A DNA stretch of 13,190 nt from Candidatus Rifleibacteriota bacterium. GTDB lineage: Bacteria > Muiribacteriota > Ozemobacteria > Ozemobacterales > Ozemobacteraceae. The DNA lies in contig JBNJGH010000091.1 in the NCBI GenBank assembly GCA_051747585.1, positions 1 through 13,190 on the forward strand, written 5' to 3'. The notes below the pieces were generated by a model. The model was not told the DNA's origin, ran no database searches, and was given only the letters and a program-made list of their open reading frames with translations. Of the stretch, positions 936 through 11,216 are shown one piece after another. Numbering within the stretch: position 1 is the stretch's first letter; every line of letters starts with the position of its first letter. The translations under genes and the position numbers were made by a program.

Positions 936-2429
936 CTAATAATCTCTTGGTTTGTACTGCTCGAAAGCTTTTTTATCGAAAGCTCTTCTAAAGGCTTCCT
1001 GAGGCAGTATTTTTCTTTGTTTAACCAGATCCATCAGCGACTGATCCATTGTCTGCATTCCTGCCTGTTTGCTGGTCTGCATAATAGACGGCAACTGAAA
1101 TGTTTTGTTGTCACGAATAAGGTTTGATACCGCAGGGGTATTTATAAGAATTTCCAGGCAACACATGCGACTCATGCCATCGATAGTTGGGATCAGCTGC
1201 TGGGCAATGATTCCCTGCAGCGCATCGGCCAGCTGTGTTCTGATCTGATCTTGTTGATGAGCCGGGAAAACGTCGACAATACGGTCAACAGACTGCGCAG
1301 CCGACGGAGTATGCAAAGTAGCAAAAACAAGATGCCCTGTTTCAGCTGCAGTTACCGCCAGAGATATGGTTTCATAGTCACGCAATTCGCCGACGAGAAT
1401 TATGTCAGGATCTTCACGCAATGCAGATTTCAGCGCATTGGCGAAGCTCCTGGTATTTGGACCAATTTCGCGTTGATTAACCAGGCAACCCTTGTGCCTA
1501 TGCACGAACTCGATAGGGTCTTCAATTGTCAATATGTGCTCCTGGCGCTCACTGTTTATCTGATCGACCATGGCCGCCAGAGTAGTAGATTTACCAGATC
1601 CGGTGGGTCCGGTAACAAGCACCATTCCCTTGTTTCTTCTTGCGAGGTCGCCTAGAACCGAGGGCAATTTAAGCTCAGCCAGCGACTTGATTTCAGTGGG
1701 AATAACACGAAAAACCGCACCCATACCAAGTCTCGTATAGAACAAATTGCACCTGTAACGTGCGACATCTTCGAGCTCATAAGAGATATCCAACTCGAGA
1801 TGATCTTCGAGACGAGCTCGCTGATCATTATCCAGGAACTGAAAAATCAGACGCCTTGTGTCTTTAGCAGATAAAATCGGCAGATCGGTTGGCCAGAGCT
1901 TGCCCTGCAAGCGAAGCATTGGTGGCGAACCAACAGCCAGGTGTAAATCAGAGCCTTGTTTTTCAACAATAAGCCTTAAAAGATCATCGATACTGTAGTC
2001 TTCGGCATTCGGGCCAGCCTTTGAAGAGGCGGCAGATTTTGAAGCTGCCGGCGGGCGTGCAGGTTGCTGCGACGATGGTGGCGGGTTTTGCGGAACACCC
2101 GTAGGTCTGCTTTGCTGAGAAGGAGCGCCTGGCTGCTGGGGCCTGGCAGGAGCGCCTGAGGGAGCAGAGGGTCGAGCCGGCCCCTGCTGTCCTGGTGCGG
2201 GTCGGCCAGATGGCCTGGCAGGCTCGCCTGGTCGGGCGGGTCCATTCGGCTGTGGCTTCGACGGCTGCGCCGGGCGCTGTTGAGGACGCGCAGGCTGTTG
2301 CGGCCTTGCGGGCGTCGAAGAACCGGCAGGTTTAGATGCAGGTGGTTTAGGGCTCCGAGGCTTTTTTTCGTCCCCGGAATTTTCATCAGAATTTCCGCCA
2401 AATAGTTTTCCAAAAAAATTATCACTCAT
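936..2429 (-). CDS. pilT: Type IV pilus retraction ATPase PilT with a long Pro/Gln/Ala-rich N-terminal extension
   Basis: SDLHL; Walker A GPTGSGKSTT; Asp box TIEDPIE; Walker B LREDPDIILVGELRD; His box TGHLVFATLH; AIRNLIRE-like motif AVSNLIRD; C-terminal GMQTMDQSL. PilT core starts near residue 146. Confidence 0.93.
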   Translation of the reverse strand: MSDNFFGKLFGGNSDENSGDEKKPRSPKPPASKPAGSSTPARPQQPARPQQRPAQPSKPQPNGPARPGEPARPSGRPAPGQQGPARPSAPSGAPARPQQPGAPSQQSRPTGVPQNPPPSSQQPARPPAASKSAASSKAGPNAEDYSIDDLLRLIVEKQGSDLHLAVGSPPMLRLQGKLWPTDLPILSAKDTRRLIFQFLDNDQRARLEDHLELDISYELEDVARYRCNLFYTRLGMGAVFRVIPTEIKSLAELKLPSVLGDLARRNKGMVLVTGPTGSGKSTTLAAMVDQINSERQEHILTIEDPIEFVHRHKGCLVNQREIGPNTRSFANALKSALREDPDIILVGELRDYETISLAVTAAETGHLVFATLHTPSAAQSVDRIVDVFPAHQQDQIRTQLADALQGIIAQQLIPTIDGMSRMCCLEILINTPAVSNLIRDNKTFQLPSIMQTSKQAGMQTMDQSLMDLVKQRKILPQEAFRRAFDKKAFEQYKPRDY

Positions 2430-2431
2430 AA

Positions 2432-4099
2432 TCAGAACAATCTCATAAATTCATCAAGACTTGTTTCACCAGCCAGCAACATTTCGAGTGCTTGCTGCTC
2501 AAGACTTTTAATGCCCTGTTTTCGGGCAAAATTATCAAAATCCTGGTAGCACTGTTTATTAATTATCATCTGCCTTAAAGTCGGGCTATCAGGAATAAAC
2601 TCTATTAATAAGACACGACCGGAATAACCTGTATTATTACAGCCTTCGCAGCCTTTAGCGACAAAAATCTTCTTCTGTTCAGCGTCTGCCGGAACCCTTG
2701 TTTTAAGCTCTTCAGGCATATCAATTTCTTCACAACAATTCTTACATATTTTTCTTACAAGACGCTGACAAAGGAATCCGCAGAGAGAGGAAGCCGCCAC
2801 CACAGGATCAACACCGGTCTGAATAAGCTTCACGATAGAACTCGGTGCGTCGTGAGCAAGGAATGAAGTTAACAAGGTCTTACCGCCAAGGCCGGCGAAA
2901 CCGATTTCTTCAGCCAAAGTCCGGCCATTGAGCTGATCTACGTAAATAATGTCGGCATCTAGAAGCAAAGCAAGCTTCAACCCCTGAACATGATCCATTA
3001 CCCCACCAGTGCCAACCTGAATCTGGGTTGTCCGCGGCAAGGTAGCTATAACCGGCTCTTCAACCGTAACAATTTTTTTGCTGTCGGCATTGTAGCTGCT
3101 TAATAGACAATATTGCGAGGTAGTTCTACCCGACTCTCGAGGGCCGGTAACATATAAAACTCCGTGAGTGGTATGCAAAGTGCGCCCAATTTTTTCAAGC
3201 TCACCTTGAACTGCCTGACCAAGCTGCTCGGTTATAGAACCAAAGTCACTCAGCTTGAGAATAACCATTTCACCATTAATTGTCGGATAAAAAATCGATT
3301 GAATATTTACCTGCCGATTAGAAACGGTTACTCTAAAATGCCCGACCTTCACCGTATCTTTGGGTGGTTCATTTTCAGCAATTTGCGAAAGTTTTTTGAG
3401 GCGCAGCAAAACTTCGTGATGTACCTTCATTGGCACTTCGATTTTACGCGACAAAACATCGTTAGATCTAAACCTGATCAGCACACCCTTTTCGGACGGT
3501 TCAAAATGAATACGATTAACCCGGTTGATTATTGCCTGACCGAGAATATAGTTGATGACCTTTTCGGGGCCTTCCATACCTTTTGGAATTCCCCGTTCGA
3601 GATTCTGTTTTTCGCTACTGTCAAGCTTGTCGAAATTCTGAGCTGAAACCTTATCATCAACATTTATGGGGCCATAAACAGCGCCATAAGTCTGCTCAAA
3701 GTCAAAAAGGGTACATATAGATACAGAAACATTAACCCCGTATTTTCCTTCGAGATATTCGACAGGCCTTGAATCAAGCGGATCAACCATACAGACACTC
3801 AATTGATTGCCGGCCTTGTAAAGTGGCATCAGCCGGTTATCAAGAGCAAACTCAGGGGTTACCATCTGAACTACTTCATTATCGACTATTCCCGGATTAA
3901 GATGGATAAAAGATATATTGAGCTGGTTTCCCAATGCCCATATAATATCATCTTCTGTTACAAGACCCATCTCAGAAAGAGCTTCACCCAGCTTGAGCCC
4001 CTTTTCTCGCTGGAAAGATAATGCCTGTTTAAGCTGCTCTTCCGAGATCAGGTTACAGTCTATTAAAATATCACCAAGACGTTTTTTCTGCGTATTCAT
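2432..4099 (-). CDS. PilB/GspE-family protein with N-terminal MshEN domain and degenerate ATPase motifs
   Basis: Two 24-aa MshEN repeats, IHFEP, QRLVRKICKNC and GCEGCNNTGYSGR identify the family. Walker A reads GPRESGRTT and Walker B reads LLLDADIIYVDQLN. ATG at 4099 (555 aa) preferred over GTG at 4126. Stop is 2 nt upstream of the pilT ATG. Confidence 0.88.
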   Translation of the reverse strand: MNTQKKRLGDILIDCNLISEEQLKQALSFQREKGLKLGEALSEMGLVTEDDIIWALGNQLNISFIHLNPGIVDNEVVQMVTPEFALDNRLMPLYKAGNQLSVCMVDPLDSRPVEYLEGKYGVNVSVSICTLFDFEQTYGAVYGPINVDDKVSAQNFDKLDSSEKQNLERGIPKGMEGPEKVINYILGQAIINRVNRIHFEPSEKGVLIRFRSNDVLSRKIEVPMKVHHEVLLRLKKLSQIAENEPPKDTVKVGHFRVTVSNRQVNIQSIFYPTINGEMVILKLSDFGSITEQLGQAVQGELEKIGRTLHTTHGVLYVTGPRESGRTTSQYCLLSSYNADSKKIVTVEEPVIATLPRTTQIQVGTGGVMDHVQGLKLALLLDADIIYVDQLNGRTLAEEIGFAGLGGKTLLTSFLAHDAPSSIVKLIQTGVDPVVAASSLCGFLCQRLVRKICKNCCEEIDMPEELKTRVPADAEQKKIFVAKGCEGCNNTGYSGRVLLIEFIPDSPTLRQMIINKQCYQDFDNFARKQGIKSLEQQALEMLLAGETSLDEFMRLF

Positions 4100-4107
4100 A
4101 CTGAAAT

Positions 4108-4136
4108 AATTTACCTGAACTGCCACTGTTGAGCAA
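4108..4136 (-). promoter_or_regulatory. Possible sigma70 promoter for the pilB-like/pilT pair
   Basis: TTGCTC-17 nt-TAAATT-8 nt-ATG(4099). Partial consensus only. Confidence 0.35.
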
Positions 4137-4187: not shown

Positions 4188-4222
4188 AAAAAAATAAAGG
4201 CCGCCTCACAATGGAAGCGGCC
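4188..4222 (-). terminator. Intrinsic terminator of hup
   Basis: Minus strand GGCCGCTTCCATTGTGAGGCGGCC hairpin followed by TTTATTTTTTT, 14 nt after the HU stop codon. Confidence 0.8.
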
Positions 4223-4236
4223 ATTCTTGCGTAAAA

Positions 4237-4518
4237 CTATTTCTTTTTGTTGATCATTTCTCTTAGATCTTTACCAGGTCTGAATTTTGCTACTTTACAT
4301 GCCGGAATTTTGATGGGTTTTTTGGTCTGAGGGTTGATTCCTGTTCTGGCCTTACGTTGTGTTACCAGAAACGAACCAAAACCGACCAGTCGCACATCAT
4401 CAGACTTTTTCAAAGCTTTTTTAATAATGTTTAATGTTGCGTCTAAAGCTTGATTGGCCTGAGTCTGGGTCATGTTTGTTGTTTTTGCGATTTCACGCAC
4501 GAGTTCGATTTTTTTCAA
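4237..4518 (-). CDS. hup: DNA-binding protein HU
   Basis: 93 aa, basic, with VRLVGFGSF, RKARTGINPQT, IKIPA and FRPGKDLRE. TTG start with strong SD AGAGGAGG at 4528-4535. Confidence 0.95.
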   Translation of the reverse strand: MKKIELVREIAKTTNMTQTQANQALDATLNIIKKALKKSDDVRLVGFGSFLVTQRKARTGINPQTKKPIKIPACKVAKFRPGKDLREMINKKK

Positions 4519-4563
4519 TTTTTGGATCCTCCTCTAACTTAGTTGAGAACTGAAGTTAAAAAA

Positions 4564-4592
4564 ATCGTACCAGCACTTTAAACCTTTGTCAA
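4564..4592 (-). promoter_or_regulatory. Strong sigma70 promoter for hup
   Basis: TTGACA (4592-4587), 17 nt spacer, TACGAT (4569-4564), with an extended -10 TG. Confidence 0.8.
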
Positions 4593-4608
4593 TGCTTTAG
4601 CGCAAAAT

Positions 4609-5784
4609 TTATCTTTTTAAATTGGTTAGATCTCGTAATTTCTGGCGTAAAGCCCTATGTTCTTTTCGCAAGGAAACCTGCTCAACCTGAATTCTGGACA
4701 AGGTTTTCTCCTGACTTGTCGACAAAGGAGCCCGCGATAAAATAGCCGAAATTTCCATTTCATTTTGCCTGATTTTACTCTGTATTCTCAACAACAGATT
4801 TCTATTATTGGCATATTCCCGCCTTAAGGAACGTTGATTTTTCAAAAGATTCTCTGAGCCTGGTTGGGCACCAAGTTCTTTTGTATAATCTTCATCTTTT
4901 TCAACACCGGCTTGAGAAGAGCCAATACTTTCCCCTTCTTTGAGTTGCTGCTCTCTTAAAAATTTTAAAAACCCGGAACGTTGTCGCACAATGATTTCTG
5001 GTTCTTCCCGGGTTTGATATTGCTGTTTTTCTTCAAGCTCTTTTTTTTCCGGACCAAAACTCATTTCATCTCTTATGTATTCAAATTCAATTTCAGGCTT
5101 TAATGGCGGCAAGCCTTTGGTTTTATCCGGGTCTCTGTCTTTAATTATTTCTGCATCATCTTTTACAAGTCTGCGATCCCCCCATTCACTTATGAGTGAC
5201 GCTTCAAGAGTTTCAGGGTTAAATTTTTCGGGTTCCTGAGCAACCTCATTTTTTCTATTAAGCCTGGAACGCATTCCCTTCTGCAAAACCAGCTGCCGAT
5301 CGCTTGAACCCTCTGCGGCTCTTAACGCAACAATTCCGGCAAAAACCCTTACCAATGCCTGACCATAGCGATCGACCTCGACATCGAAGGAAGTCCCGAG
5401 AACCGAACATGAACCCAGAGGAGTAAAAACTTTAAAAGCATCCGACCTGCGCCTTACCTTAAACCAGGCATAACCGAGCTTTAATTGAATACCATCACGC
5501 AAAACGGTAATCATAGCGTTTCTTTTAATTCTGACAACGGTTCCATCGGGGAACATCAACTCGCCGCGACCGGCTCCCTCGACATTAATTCGGTCGCCGG
5601 GCTGCACCTCTACCGGCTGTATTTCTTGTAAAGCCAACCAGTTCGCGCCATCATTCCTGGAAAGCACTGCCCGGCCGGCAAGTTTTCTAAAAATAAACTT
5701 ATTATGCTGTCCTTCAACTGTTAGAGTGCCTGCAAACAATAATGCAAGAACAGCAAAAAACCTTAAAAGATAATTATATTTCAT
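4609..5784 (-). CDS. Secreted FecR-domain protein with C-terminal coiled coil
   Basis: Signal peptide MKYNYLLRFFAVLALLFAGTLTVEG. FecR-like pattern GDRI..ELMFPDGTVVRI...FKVFTPLGSCSVLGTSFDV. Charged helical C-terminus. ATG at 5784 follows GGTGGT; the track start is GTG at 5793. Confidence 0.78.
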   Translation of the reverse strand: MKYNYLLRFFAVLALLFAGTLTVEGQHNKFIFRKLAGRAVLSRNDGANWLALQEIQPVEVQPGDRINVEGAGRGELMFPDGTVVRIKRNAMITVLRDGIQLKLGYAWFKVRRRSDAFKVFTPLGSCSVLGTSFDVEVDRYGQALVRVFAGIVALRAAEGSSDRQLVLQKGMRSRLNRKNEVAQEPEKFNPETLEASLISEWGDRRLVKDDAEIIKDRDPDKTKGLPPLKPEIEFEYIRDEMSFGPEKKELEEKQQYQTREEPEIIVRQRSGFLKFLREQQLKEGESIGSSQAGVEKDEDYTKELGAQPGSENLLKNQRSLRREYANNRNLLLRIQSKIRQNEMEISAILSRAPLSTSQEKTLSRIQVEQVSLRKEHRALRQKLRDLTNLKR

Positions 5785-5945
5785 TTTTACCACCGAATAT
5801 CACAAGTATTAATCGCCAATTATACAGCATATTCTTACAAAAATAACCCCGCAAATCAAACAAAAACCAGGAATTCTCGGTCAATTATTATTAGCTGGTT
5901 ACAAAAAGTTCTGGTTTTATTTCTTTCTGTCAAATATAGAATTTA

Positions 5946-7899: not shown

Positions 7900-10182
7900 A
7901 TGCAGTGGCTTGCCTTAAAAAAACGGGGAAACATTACCATTATACTTTTAGGTCTTGTAAGTATAATGGTAATAATGGTTTTCGCCCTGTCCAGAAGGAT
8001 GAGCGGACACACTCAGTTATTGACGCTGAGTGATCAAACCCAGATTACCCGATATTTTCTTGAATCTTACGCAGGTGATGTCTTGCAACAAATCACCGCC
8101 TCAGCTAACAAGCTTGATTCAGATAATTTTAAAGTTTTTCGCGAAGCAGTGCGAAACCAGAATCTAGACACAGACTTCTACGAGCCATCTAACCTACTAA
8201 TAGAGCTATCAAACGAGCTTCAAACCGAAATCAAATTACCTCCCGAAATTGTATTCACTCAGGTAGAGAAACTTGATTATCCAACAGGTTACAGTTGCCC
8301 AAACAATTTTCTCGGCAAAGAAAAAAGAGGATTGCTCGAGATTATATGCAAAGCTCAATTCCAGGACCGTGAATACAAACTTAGAGTACAGTATCCATTC
8401 ACGGTGGTTATGCGACTTACTCCTGTAATCAAAGATTTTGTTCTTTTTGCAGATCAAATTGGACGCGAACAGGGACGTGACAAAATCGGTCCCGACGACA
8501 ACCTGAACATAATGTACACGAAAGACGGCGAACATCCTGAAATAATTGACTCGGAAATAATGTCAATAATGCCTCACCGAAGACTCCGACCCGGCATAAA
8601 ATACCGACCATTTATCATACAACCCGCATGGGCCCCCGCAGAGTTTGGCAACGCCGACCTAAGCGGAAAGGTTTATCTGGGTCCCTCAGACGAATCCGTT
8701 TTTCTCAACCTGGCCGGAGACAACCGGGAAATTGCAGAAACGAGTATGGGTGAGCTTTATCTCATTTCACCCGAAACTTTCAAAGTCGCTGACGAAAACA
8801 CTACTTTTGAGCATATAGGTGTTTTTATGAATCAAAATGGCGGTTTTACAAAAATGCTCGGCATGAATATACCATTAAAACACAGTCATATCGCTAAAAT
8901 GGGAGTAATGGGATTCTCTTATGAAATGGTTCCAGCGCTGGGAACAATCTTTGAAGGCTCTGCTTACGAACCTGAAGACTTTTTCAATTCCGGTGGTTCT
9001 TCCAGCGAGTTTTATCAGAAAATTAACAATTATGGTAAAGGTTTTTTAGCTATGGCCAGCGGTCTAAAACTAATGGGAATAAAACCGGAGGGAGGGACTC
9101 TGCCCGCACGTGAAATATATGGCAATGTTTTATCAAGATTCTTTGTCATGACTTTCTGGTGGCCTCCATCTGGGGGTGGTGAACCACTTAAATACGATGA
9201 ATCGAGAGGTTCTAACGATTTTCCCTCCAGAGAAGTTTTTGGGGCTACCACCTACCATTTTGAGCCGGAAAGTCCAGACCAGGAATACCAGGACTTTATG
9301 TCGCGAATGGTATCGGGAAAAAACTGGCTCCCCCGATCAGGCGATCCTCCCAAGGGTTTTCTTCCATACAACATAGACTCCAGAATCACTACGGGAAAAC
9401 AAGCTAGAGCTATTTTTGACCATAGCAATTTCAATGCAAACGATGGGTTTCAGGCTAAAAGCAATCTCGACGAACTGGGCAAAAAATGGTTTGGCGTAAG
9501 AGAACCGGGCGACTTATCACTCACCGAGCCTACGGGAATTGAAACGAGAGTAGGCAGGGTTTTTAACAGTGGCGAAGACTTTTTACAAACAGCCGGCATT
9601 GATGAGGGTAGATTTGATGTAAACGGCATAGTTTATGTTTCAGGCGACCTTGAGGTTCCACCGCTAACAATGACCAACGATAAAATTGGCGGAGGAGTAG
9701 TTCTGGTAGATGGAACAATCAAAATTGCAAATATTACCAGAGGCTACAATGTCGACACCGACACTCTGAACATAGGCGAAGTTGGCAATCTATATCAGAA
9801 ATGGAGCGAAGAAATTACCCAGGATAGTTTTCTTACCTTCGTTTCGTTAAAGGGTGAGCCCATTATGATCAAGGGCGAAGCGCTGATAGGAGTTCAGCTT
9901 GTTAACCTTAATGACCCCTTCGGGCGCCCTTACGACCAGGTTATCTGGAGCTCATCGGTAAATAAAGAAATTTTATTCTGTGGCGGAATTGCTTGTAATT
10001 ACCTGAATCTACCCGAAAGACTTAGAGAATTCGGTCGGATACAAAGTGCCTGCAACATACTTAAAGCACCTTTTTTTCTCTATCATTCGGCAATGGCCGC
10101 TGAAGAACCATCCCTCGCGGTTCAAATAATGGAAGACATGCGCGGCTACCGTTTAACCGCAGGAAAGGCCCAGGATGAGTAA
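7900..10182 (+). CDS. Large PilX/GspK-like minor (pseudo)pilin, 760 aa
   Basis: N-terminus KKRG|NITIILLGLVSIMVIMVFALS resembles a class III signal lacking Glu+5, as PilX/GspK do. Gly-rich beta-type repeats near the C-terminus (VNGIVYVSGDL, GGGVVLVDGTIKI). Overlaps the next prepilin gene by 8 nt. Confidence 0.6.
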   Translation: MQWLALKKRGNITIILLGLVSIMVIMVFALSRRMSGHTQLLTLSDQTQITRYFLESYAGDVLQQITASANKLDSDNFKVFREAVRNQNLDTDFYEPSNLLIELSNELQTEIKLPPEIVFTQVEKLDYPTGYSCPNNFLGKEKRGLLEIICKAQFQDREYKLRVQYPFTVVMRLTPVIKDFVLFADQIGREQGRDKIGPDDNLNIMYTKDGEHPEIIDSEIMSIMPHRRLRPGIKYRPFIIQPAWAPAEFGNADLSGKVYLGPSDESVFLNLAGDNREIAETSMGELYLISPETFKVADENTTFEHIGVFMNQNGGFTKMLGMNIPLKHSHIAKMGVMGFSYEMVPALGTIFEGSAYEPEDFFNSGGSSSEFYQKINNYGKGFLAMASGLKLMGIKPEGGTLPAREIYGNVLSRFFVMTFWWPPSGGGEPLKYDESRGSNDFPSREVFGATTYHFEPESPDQEYQDFMSRMVSGKNWLPRSGDPPKGFLPYNIDSRITTGKQARAIFDHSNFNANDGFQAKSNLDELGKKWFGVREPGDLSLTEPTGIETRVGRVFNSGEDFLQTAGIDEGRFDVNGIVYVSGDLEVPPLTMTNDKIGGGVVLVDGTIKIANITRGYNVDTDTLNIGEVGNLYQKWSEEITQDSFLTFVSLKGEPIMIKGEALIGVQLVNLNDPFGRPYDQVIWSSSVNKEILFCGGIACNYLNLPERLREFGRIQSACNILKAPFFLYHSAMAAEEPSLAVQIMEDMRGYRLTAGKAQDE

Positions 10183-10654
10183 GCTACGCAGAAAAGGCAT
10201 GTCCATGATCGAATTACTTGTCGGGGTAACCATTTTTGGCCTGGCAATGGTTCCTCTAATGTGGCTCGGCACTTCACAAACAAGAGGAGCCTATTCTATT
10301 GGCAAACACATGATGGCAGGTCAGATTGCCGCCAGCTTTCTTGACAGCCTGCTTGGACTGCCATTTGAAGACTGCCTCGAAAAAGTTAAAGAGCTTAAAT
10401 CGCAAGATAAAATTAAAGTGCTTGAAGATGAAAATCTGAAAAAAAGTTTGCAGGCAGTAGCAGATGACAGCGTCAAAAAAGATATGGAAGTTTCTTTCAA
10501 GCATTTTACTTATAAGTTTAACTATGCACTCGATGAAGACAATCGTATATTAAGACTTGATATAGAAGTGTTCTACCGGGTAGTTGAAGGGAAACCAGAC
10601 TCAGAGCAATCAACAAAACTTTCTGTTTTAAAGCACGGTGCAAAAATTGGTTAA
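10175..10654 (+). CDS. Prepilin-type N-terminal cleavage/methylation domain protein (minor pilin, PilV/GspI-like by size and context)
   Basis: RRKG|MSMIELLVGVTIFGLAMVPLMWLG: basic leader, Gly-1, Glu+5, hydrophobic helix. Confidence 0.85.
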   Translation: MSKLRRKGMSMIELLVGVTIFGLAMVPLMWLGTSQTRGAYSIGKHMMAGQIAASFLDSLLGLPFEDCLEKVKELKSQDKIKVLEDENLKKSLQAVADDSVKKDMEVSFKHFTYKFNYALDEDNRILRLDIEVFYRVVEGKPDSEQSTKLSVLKHGAKIG

Positions 10655-11216
10655 GAACAAAAGATTCAACAAATTTGGAGTAACAATGATGGAAATAGTT
10701 ATAGTTGCAGCTATTTCCAGCATGGTTCTGACCATGGCAATGCTCATAATGAATAGAACCACAAGACATTTTAAAAAAGGCACTGACATGCTTAACAACC
10801 AGCGACTGATGGACAACATCGTAGAGCGCATCAGAACCGATGTTAGGTCGCTAAAAAAGACGATAAATTCCGAGTGTAACGATATTTCATTTTCATTTTA
10901 TGCAATTCGCGATGGTGTTGAAAAAAAAATTCACTATCAATATGACGAAAATCGACAAACTCTTTATAGAAACGAAGAAGGCAAAGAAACAAATTTTCAC
11001 GGGGCCAAACAGGTAAAATCCTTTTTGTTTAAACCGGAATATGACAGCAACGGACGATTTAGATTTTTAAATGTGGTTATGCAACTTGTTTCAGATGATA
11101 AAAGCAATTCACAGGGAGGCGAGTCTACCCTGTCGATTGCCTGCCAATTTTATTCTACCTGTGTTGAAGCCGAACTCAACATAGCAAAAATAAGAGAAAA
11201 TAACGACGACAGTTAA
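10638..11216 (+). CDS. Prepilin-type protein (minor pilin, PilW/GspJ-like by context)
   Basis: KNKRFNKFG|VTMMEIVIVAAISSMVLTMAMLIM followed by the helix LMDNIVERIRTDVR. Start uncertain (GTG 10638 or TTG 10647). Confidence 0.82.
   Translation: MQKLVKNKRFNKFGVTMMEIVIVAAISSMVLTMAMLIMNRTTRHFKKGTDMLNNQRLMDNIVERIRTDVRSLKKTINSECNDISFSFYAIRDGVEKKIHYQYDENRQTLYRNEEGKETNFHGAKQVKSFLFKPEYDSNGRFRFLNVVMQLVSDDKSNSQGGESTLSIACQFYSTCVEAELNIAKIRENNDDS

Follow-up and report, generated by a model that had tools for sequence, protein, structure and literature searches.

The closest described counterpart of the genes analysed here is the pair mshE (GSU0435)-pilT3 (GSU0436) of Geobacter sulfurreducens (PMC5065972, PMC8557921; the papers cited were accessible in part, and statements on them refer to those parts). 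It is of the same family and has the same gene order as a locus at positions 936 to 4,099 of a stretch of 13,190 nucleotides (nt), hereafter the window, which covers positions 1 to 13,190 of contig JBNJGH010000091.1 of a Candidatus Rifleibacteriota bacterium (Ozemobacteraceae; assembly GCA_051747585.1). The locus encodes a PilB-like pseudo-ATPase, called here the dead PilB, followed by a PilT with an N-terminal extension. PilT3 differs in having no such extension and GSU0435 in that its head lacks the first Arg of the motif for cyclic diguanosine monophosphate (c-di-GMP); GSU0435 has been treated as a possible active assembly ATPase, its lost catalytic motifs passing unremarked in the accessible text of both papers. 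Extension ATPases bearing MshEN (Vibrio cholerae MshE, Myxococcus xanthus and Geobacter PilB, Thermus thermophilus PilF) share the N1 head with its 53-residue c-di-GMP motif, the PilB fold and the tetracysteine Zn site (PMC5013675, PMC11656802); unlike them, the dead PilB has neither catalytic residues nor linkage to pilC, and its head is predicted to act on a separate PilT and not on its own ATPase. Control linked to c-di-GMP through the ND1 pocket would be shared with PilZ-FimX on the N-domain of Xanthomonas citri PilB (PDB 7lkm; PMC8389850), where the regulator binds an active extension motor, whereas here a PilB-derived head would be the regulator and a retraction motor its predicted target. 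CpiA of Acinetobacter baylyi and phage Aqs1 are likewise motor-binding proteins thought to shut the motor down, but they target PilB and, in the accessible part of the source, have no known motor homology (stated for CpiA) and no known second-messenger site (PMC8213720). The accessory motors PilU and TfpB are also paralogous ATPases beside a primary motor, and PilU binds PilT (10.1101/2025.10.30.685630, PMC11656802); both, however, are active, and the face of PilT that PilU occupies is the N-terminal one, separate from that for PilC, while the predicted site of the present head is the AIRNLIRE face.

The Geobacter pair is thus already known, and a dead PilB regulating PilT is not described in the literature searched (subscription papers lay outside its scope). 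For GSU0435 the search turned up only PMC5065972 and PMC8557921; in the accessible part of the supplement of PMC5013675 the architecture table holds no dead-ATPase form, and a search of two files for GSU gave no match. The choice between pilus extension and retraction is an open question, and the c-di-GMP links and inhibitors MshE, FimX-PilZ, CpiA and Aqs1 act on the extension motor. If a dead PilB does bind PilT, it would add direct control of retraction, a second-messenger switch on PilT, whereas the regulators in the literature searched act on PilB. It would give the unexplained PilT3 a role, and the named residues make the idea testable in the tractable G. sulfurreducens. The annotation of GSU0435 also needs correction: the protein figures among possible stand-ins for PilB in the discussion of Geobacter pili (PMC8557921), but its catalytic motifs are missing.

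The features of the pair are the following (aa, amino acids; dN and dS, nonsynonymous and synonymous divergence; pLDDT, predicted local distance difference test):
2432..4099, minus strand: PilB-like pseudo-ATPase gene, 555 aa (P0002), assigned by profile scores, PilB fold and dN far below dS
3671..4099, minus strand: N1 head, MshEN_N plus MshEN_C, aa 1-143, with signature C15, D51-I52-x-W54-A55-L56, Q59; predicted PilT-binding part
3923..4081, minus strand: tandem 24+5+24 c-di-GMP-binding motif, R7 L8 G9 L23 L27 Q30 / K36 L37 G38 I52 L56 Q59
3122..3145, minus strand: degenerate Walker A GPRESGRT, Lys replaced by Arg325 (48 family orthologs compared)
2933..2950, minus strand: degenerate Walker B IIYVDQ, catalytic Glu replaced by Gln389; both His-box histidines also lost (K407, L414)
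936..2429, minus strand: pilT, 497 aa (P0001), catalytic motifs all intact, TIGR01420 over cut-off
2394..2429, minus strand: N-terminal amphipathic tip MSDNFFGKLFGG, putative membrane anchor
1995..2393, minus strand: Pro/Ser/Ala/Gln-rich disordered linker, 24% Pro, pLDDT <50 over nearly all of aa 1-142
957..1136, minus strand: PilT C-terminal face, aa 432-491 (AVSNLIRD, SIMQTSKQ, K470, D485-K486), predicted to bind the head

P0002 has the fold of PilB (N1, N2 and a C-terminal domain with the tetracysteine Zn motif), with a template-modelling score of 0.86, normalised to the target, against 5tsh. Its scores fall below the cut-offs of the NCBIfam PilB profile TIGR02538 (266.6 bits, cut-off 675.65) and of TIGR02533 (253.3 bits, cut-off 630.25). 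The Walker B Glu, the second Asp-box Glu, the His box and the Arg fingers are absent (Q389, I351, K407, L414, L379, H254, Q267). An earlier reading of the window (the original prediction) had called this PilB dead, and motif comparison in the 48 full-length family orthologs bears out the catalytic decay. The Walker A Lys position holds Arg in 46 and Lys in 2; that of the Walker B Glu is mostly His, Lys, Asp or Gln, with Glu in L048 but outside the five most frequent residues; neither His-box histidine remains in any of the 48; the RQD arginine is retained in 3/48, and at the two other arginine-finger positions there is His (48) and Gln (47). By its motifs, then, P0002 is catalytically dead. 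Considering that T326, E347, H198, R211 and the four Zn cysteines are invariant (48/48), the dead PilB may still bind nucleotide. It was also possible to discard a decaying pseudogene, as dN was far below dS: in eight ortholog pairs dN was 0.003-0.14 and dS ranged from 0.19 to saturated, with dN/dS of about 0.01-0.08 in head and body alike. The gene is under purifying selection.

The original prediction proposed a survey of relatives for the pairing, which proved near-universal (48/49 loci in the family, 67/67 informative Geobacter-type loci, 13/17 in a third phylum). A dead-PilB ortholog was found in 48/50 other family genomes, the two without it being 70% complete. The extended pilT lies directly 3' of the dead PilB in all family loci except one whose contig ends inside the dead gene, and the gap is -1 to 33 nt in nearly all, with two wider (92 and 140 nt). 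Among 36 genomes of other families, 3 carry the signature at E 1e-25, each time followed by pilT: in L085 and L119 the body is far more decayed than in Ozemobacteraceae, and L084 encodes the head alone (197 aa). L202 and the top matches of three other families (L120-L125) are ordinary active PilBs, and the profile search of L203 gave no match. We also observed that the head-only form (L084:824-1417) has at its end a small beta-rich domain, about 50 aa long, that replaces the ATPase; P0041 (196 aa) has a similar length.

Beyond the phylum, the head profile was searched over 1.84 billion representatives and the top 150 were examined. GxxGxGK[ST] occurred in 0/21 full-length proteins with the DIxWAL..Q signature, and the signature in 0/30 active ones. 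Among the Geobacter-type homologs listed, 118/118 had the signature and 0/118 the Walker A pattern; the loss of catalytic residues extends over the 48 family and 119 Geobacter-type proteins compared. In AAR33767.1 of G. sulfurreducens (P0283), taken as GSU0435, both primer peptides published for that protein (PMC5065972) are present, as is the DIxWAL signature. The window pair has the same make-up as GSU0435-pilT3, that is, a DIxWAL head, no Walker A, pilT directly 3' and no pilC. For the metagenome scan the query was the Geobacter-type subset and its pattern, the broad alignment A3 having no sufficiently conserved stretch. Of 80 such loci, 67 had at least 300 nt downstream; tblastn found pilT in 66 of these and the 67th holds a pilT start, the partners being without an N-terminal extension (P0070, P0078, P0084, P0087, P0115 and other signature proteins are excluded from the neighbourhood counts). 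In the third phylum (that of G087; 25 genomes searched, top 20 loci) there were 3 active PilBs and 17 without Walker A, of which 13 adjoin pilT, 1 is cut and 3 do not adjoin it. Many of its dead PilBs gain two GAF domains and some consist of GAF-GAF-head only. The whole ATPase body is absent in L084, L201 and L339-L341, where pilT still adjoins; the partner PilTs of L339-L341 carry a Pro-rich tail, at the C-terminus and not at the N-terminus. An ESM Atlas search returned only generic MshEN/T2SSE clusters, and a plasmid search gave, among the matches listed, only about 22-25% identity.

In trees of the whole protein and of the head, a single branch sets the signature proteins apart, and it does so too once the signature columns are removed (Shimodaira-Hasegawa-like approximate likelihood-ratio support 92, 95 and 97); the body-only tree does not reproduce this. 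These trees were made by a quick method, with long branches and no approximately unbiased test, nine long or gappy rows being dropped, and common descent of the dead PilBs is a tentative reading of them. None of the partner PilTs falls within the clade of PilTs linked to pilB, and 98/101 have the C-terminal DK-type motif. A 610-aa protein of the source genome (L290:3814-5646; G000 C31:4813-6645, plus strand) fuses a domain for cyclic nucleoside monophosphates (cNMP) to MshEN_C (N1) and an intact PilT. It is the sister of the Geobacter PilT3 group (support 97/94, in a tree from which four rows were dropped) and may be a one-chain, cyclic-nucleotide version of the module. Taking into account that the ATPase body decays or is lost, that GAF domains are added and that Geobacter PilT3 has no extension, the conserved unit is, on these alignments, head plus PilT, without the extension.

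The head of P0002 matched the MshEN motif profile NF053729 with 62.2 bits, over the cut-off of 38. The described motif consists of two 24-residue units RLGxx..G..LxxxLxxQ, 5 residues apart (PMC5013675). In P0002 the spacing is exact, 10/12 ligand-contact positions are identical, the others being R-to-K36 and L-to-I52, and the turn Gly18 is Asn16. R7, L8, G9, L27, G38, I52 and Q59 occur in 47/47 family heads, and the motif positions are kept in 45-47 of 47. The source genome has 17 GGDEF matches, so a c-di-GMP signal is plausible there, which says nothing on binding by P0002. In the Ozemobacteraceae, where the motif is whole, the proposed brake is likely gated by c-di-GMP; as a general feature, which the original prediction of c-di-GMP control would imply, such gating is not supported. 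The first Arg of the motif is absent in 73/73 Geobacter-type proteins, and in some members of the third phylum the motif is further decayed.

A complex of the head (aa 1-148) with the PilT core was modelled from same-locus alignments of 74 rows, redundancy-reduced from 101 pairs. The score was 0.61, with 0.00 for the best of 3 controls; it passed a mark reached by 116/157 solved complexes and 2/215 mismatched pairs, a calibration that is rough here as our own alignments were used. The runs share at least 91% of contacts, with partner pLDDT of at least 83. On the head the predicted interface comprises C15-L17, D50-D51, W54-A55 and the ND1 strands, and on PilT residues 432-437 (the AIRNLIRE equivalent), 445-455, 463-472 and 485-491. 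The signature residues W54, D51 and C15 meet PilT K470, invariant in 74/74 rows, and the 12 residues of the c-di-GMP motif all lie outside the interface. PilT-side interface residues are common to both lineages in 13/20 positions versus 164/354 overall. The full-length GspE structure (PDB 4pht) reportedly has a head-to-C-domain contact, which could bias the model. By comparison with X. citri PilB, 6/7 residues of the PilZ pocket, which is separate from the PilM face (PMC8389850), map into the predicted PilT interface; the mapping uses an offset of 7, taken from hit ranges and an assumed 21-residue tag. The head is thus predicted to bind directly the C-terminal AIRNLIRE face of PilT, which has been placed at the PilT-PilC interface by modelling (10.1101/2025.10.30.685630).

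The firm parts of what follows, at the level of sequence, are the catalytic loss, the purifying selection, the fact that across three phyla the gene is linked to one kind of pilT, and the retention of head and pilT after loss of the body. We propose that the MshEN head of the dead PilB binds the C-terminal face of the PilT encoded next to it and that the bound head would block PilT docking on the PilC platform, acting as a brake on pilus retraction. c-di-GMP would fix the two head subdomains that jointly form the PilT site and so tune the affinity, by tightening or by releasing; GAF domains would supply the input in the third phylum, and the pair would act in trans on pilus machines encoded elsewhere. 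That the head caps the docking face and keeps a secondary retraction motor away from the pilus machine until the signal changes, as a c-di-GMP-gated retraction brake, is a model-based reading to which we give an even chance. The idea that the two genes are a conserved module, with PilT regulated by a dead PilB that bears MshEN, is supported by the near-universal pairing, the purifying selection and the complex model. A dead ATPase occupying the platform, also put forward in the original prediction, does not agree with L084, L201 and L339-L341, in which the ATPase body is gone entirely and the genes are still paired. In Pseudomonas aeruginosa PilT3 brings back retraction without its partner (PMC5065972), which fits a brake better than an obligate adaptor. 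Deletion of pilT3 gives no dense (hyperpiliation-type) biofilm and a lag in anode colonisation and Fe(III) reduction (PMC5065972); together with the solo retraction, this phenotype fits a conditionally released motor. Tentatively, and at somewhat short of an even chance, the locus would represent an ancient PilB-derived pseudo-ATPase family, in at least three phyla and with the model organism G. sulfurreducens among its carriers, of dedicated signal-controlled retraction-motor inhibitors, whose head caps the PilC-docking face, whose inputs are swappable (c-di-GMP, GAF, cNMP in the fusion) and whose body is dispensable.

Several observations weigh against the brake. Reverse-transcription PCR argues against co-transcription of mshE and pilT3 in Geobacter (PMC5065972), and the pair is split in three related genomes (G107-G109), each with a same-clade pilT elsewhere. 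In the third phylum W54 is replaced by C or Y and K470 by M or N. The body-only tree gives 2 changes for the signature proteins, and the partner PilTs are not an exclusive clade (3 changes forced), with weak deep support. The body is still selected, with E347, T326, H198, R211 and four Zn cysteines kept in 48/48, which a brake made of the head alone leaves unexplained. On the head, conservation between lineages is no higher at the interface than elsewhere (5/23 versus 31/148), and the PilC contact of AIRNLIRE is itself modelled. The controls for the complex contained neither the head of an active PilB nor a PilT from outside such a pair, and the mark can also be reached by close cousins. As the pocket on the head seems to coincide with the known PilZ pocket, the model may have remembered a binding site; the overlap both supports the predicted PilT site and warns of such memory.

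Taking the same pairing and the same complex model, the head could instead act as a recruiter, binding PilT alike and docking by its other face on PilM, so that PilT would be parked at the pilus base for a signal-triggered hand-off to PilC. This would agree with the X. citri PilZ pocket, to which the predicted PilT site maps and which does not overlap the PilM face (PMC8389850), with the PilM-like genes of the source genome and with the late anode colonisation of the pilT3 mutant (PMC5065972). We consider it unlikely, given that PilT3 retracts pili in P. aeruginosa without the partner (PMC5065972) and that the bound PilT face is the one modelled against PilC (10.1101/2025.10.30.685630). The body, with its PilB fold, its purifying selection and its invariant P-loop, E347, R211 and Zn residues (48/48), would make sense if it formed a dead hexamer on PilC or mixed as a poison subunit into PilB or PilT rings, that is, a clutch. 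Considering that decay of the body goes much further beyond the family, that L084, L201 and L339-L341 lack it with pilT still adjoining, and that linkage to one kind of pilT would be left unexplained, such a dead ring seems quite improbable. Since neither pilC nor pilins are linked to the pair, it could also be a signalling hub, in which the nucleotide state of PilT and the c-di-GMP or GAF input would control matrix or attachment and not pilus motion, as M. xanthus PilB does with exopolysaccharide (EPS; a precedent in PMC11656802); the pilT3 deletion delays attachment and Fe(III) reduction, which its authors tie to possible EPS effects (PMC5065972). However, in a heterologous host the partner works as a retraction motor (PMC5065972), and no output domain or third conserved gene was seen, hup and the FecR-like neighbour being limited to the family, so we give the hub a slim chance as well. 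Mere persistence of an old pilB-pilT order, with the dead PilB alone as c-di-GMP receptor or sink, is highly improbable: the order is common (e.g., in the C1 cluster of the source genome), the pair is split in G107-G109 and the Geobacter pair is perhaps not co-transcribed (PMC5065972), but the spacing of -1 to 33 nt found in nearly all loci of the family, a pairing retained across three phyla despite domain loss, the natural cNMP-MshEN_C-PilT fusion, the partner-specific C-terminal residues of PilT and the passing complex model stand against it.

The PilT of the window scored 481.8 bits against TIGR01420 (cut-off 319.1), with Walker A/B, Asp and His boxes intact, and its AIRNLIRE motif is the variant AVSNLIRD (aa 433-440). 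The N-terminal extension is 146 aa long, Pro-rich and disordered. Its amphipathic tip was found in 43/44 complete PilT partners, the exception being a partner from another family, with a hydrophobic moment of 0.49 in P0001 and of 0.45-0.62 across partners; AlphaFold gave no helix there (pLDDT about 40). The tip may resemble the membrane-targeting helix of MinD. A transmembrane anchor is ruled out, the highest 19-residue hydropathy being 1.24, so the PilT described earlier as membrane-tethered has no transmembrane segment, just a short amphipathic tip. Linker and tip would be a family-specific add-on that keeps PilT near the membrane. Neither does the extended PilT hold as a defining half of the module: the extension is ruled out in that role by the Geobacter partners that lack it, and extended PilTs of another clade occur without a dead PilB (L086, L088). 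The latter (L086:7467-8819 and L088:5466-6872) belong to a distinct clade of PilTs, whose N-terminal extension is acidic or Pro/Ala-rich and has a conserved MDxNEWMxEFL tip; no dead PilB adjoins them.

Three further features lie upstream of the pair:
4237..4518, minus strand: hup (HU), upstream neighbour kept in family loci; outside the module
4199..4222, minus strand: terminator-like hairpin plus T run, intrinsic type, downstream of hup, parting hup from the pair
4108..4136, minus strand: sigma-70-like promoter motif TTGCTC-17-TAAATT, 8 nt 5' of the ATG, no Shine-Dalgarno

The minus strand reads TGA-TT-ATG at the junction, which confirms the gap of 2 nt between the stop of the PilB-like gene and the ATG of pilT. 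The start of the PilB-like gene at ATG 4099 agrees with all relatives; a GTG at 4126, which would read through the promoter motif, was discarded. The position of the pair below a hup terminator was also borne out: the hairpin at 4222-4199, followed by its T run, folds with -17.5 kcal/mol (z -3.4; 0/200 equally stable shuffles), and many relatives carry similar hairpins below hup. The candidate promoter held in part, as a strict sigma-70 scan between 4199 and 4100 found no site, while the motif is conserved. A pattern TTG[ACT]nn-16/18-TAnnnT 4-20 nt 5' of the ATG occurs in 43/48 loci of the family (in the alignment of relatives it takes the form TTGCnn-17/18-TAnnnT, 6-16 nt from the ATG), while 500 shuffles gave 1.5 on average and at most 5, the pattern having been derived from the very loci on which it was counted and kin loci not being independent; 1 locus cut at its start and 3 loci of other families were left out. 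Since a Shine-Dalgarno-like word appears in only 3/48 family loci and the promoter motif is close to the ATG, the mRNA is likely leaderless. The absence of pilC alongside also stood, with none near the pair in 52 loci of its own phylum, 80 Geobacter-type and 18 third-phylum loci, versus 5/8 control loci with active PilB; pilC-like genes are present elsewhere in the source genome. Between 5 and 17% of the words of the window were found in each of 8 RNA runs; in the 4 runs mapped, hup and, in scattered stretches of 150-270 nt, both genes of the pair are covered by contigs, of which none crosses the junction; they are uninformative on operon, level or habitat.

A FecR-domain gene and hup (4237-5793, minus strand) precede the pair in most family loci, some being without hup or with the order broken, and their presence beside it is confined to the Ozemobacteraceae. 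On the other strand, about 4-7 kb from the pair, the window has a gene for a protein of 760 aa whose start resembles a pilin, and two genes of pilin type that carry N-methylation motifs (7900-11216, plus strand), an adjacency not kept in relatives.

Among the other genes of the source genome (G000) are some that resemble pilC, pilM and those for secretins, roughly ten for PilB/GspE or fragments of it in which Walker A is intact, and some nine more of PilT type. A second odd PilB, unrelated to the dead one, joins a PilC/GspF-like fragment to a PilB-like ATPase in which Walker A is present and Walker B decayed (C111:4780-6351, plus strand). A 933-aa protein joins a long HEAT-like repeat region (by eye) to PilT (C39:10050-12851, plus strand), and PilT matches lying within open frames of 910-1050 aa are found repeatedly in the family and the phylum. 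Two adjoining PilT-like genes with altered motifs (C24:23125-25232, plus strand; neither with the Walker B Glu, the second with GPARSGIST) lie about 2 kb from an intact pilT pair. Two PilB/GspE ATPases carry, by eye, long C-terminal additions: a repeat region (C15:37872-41372) and a histidine-kinase-like tail (C127:7608-9275).

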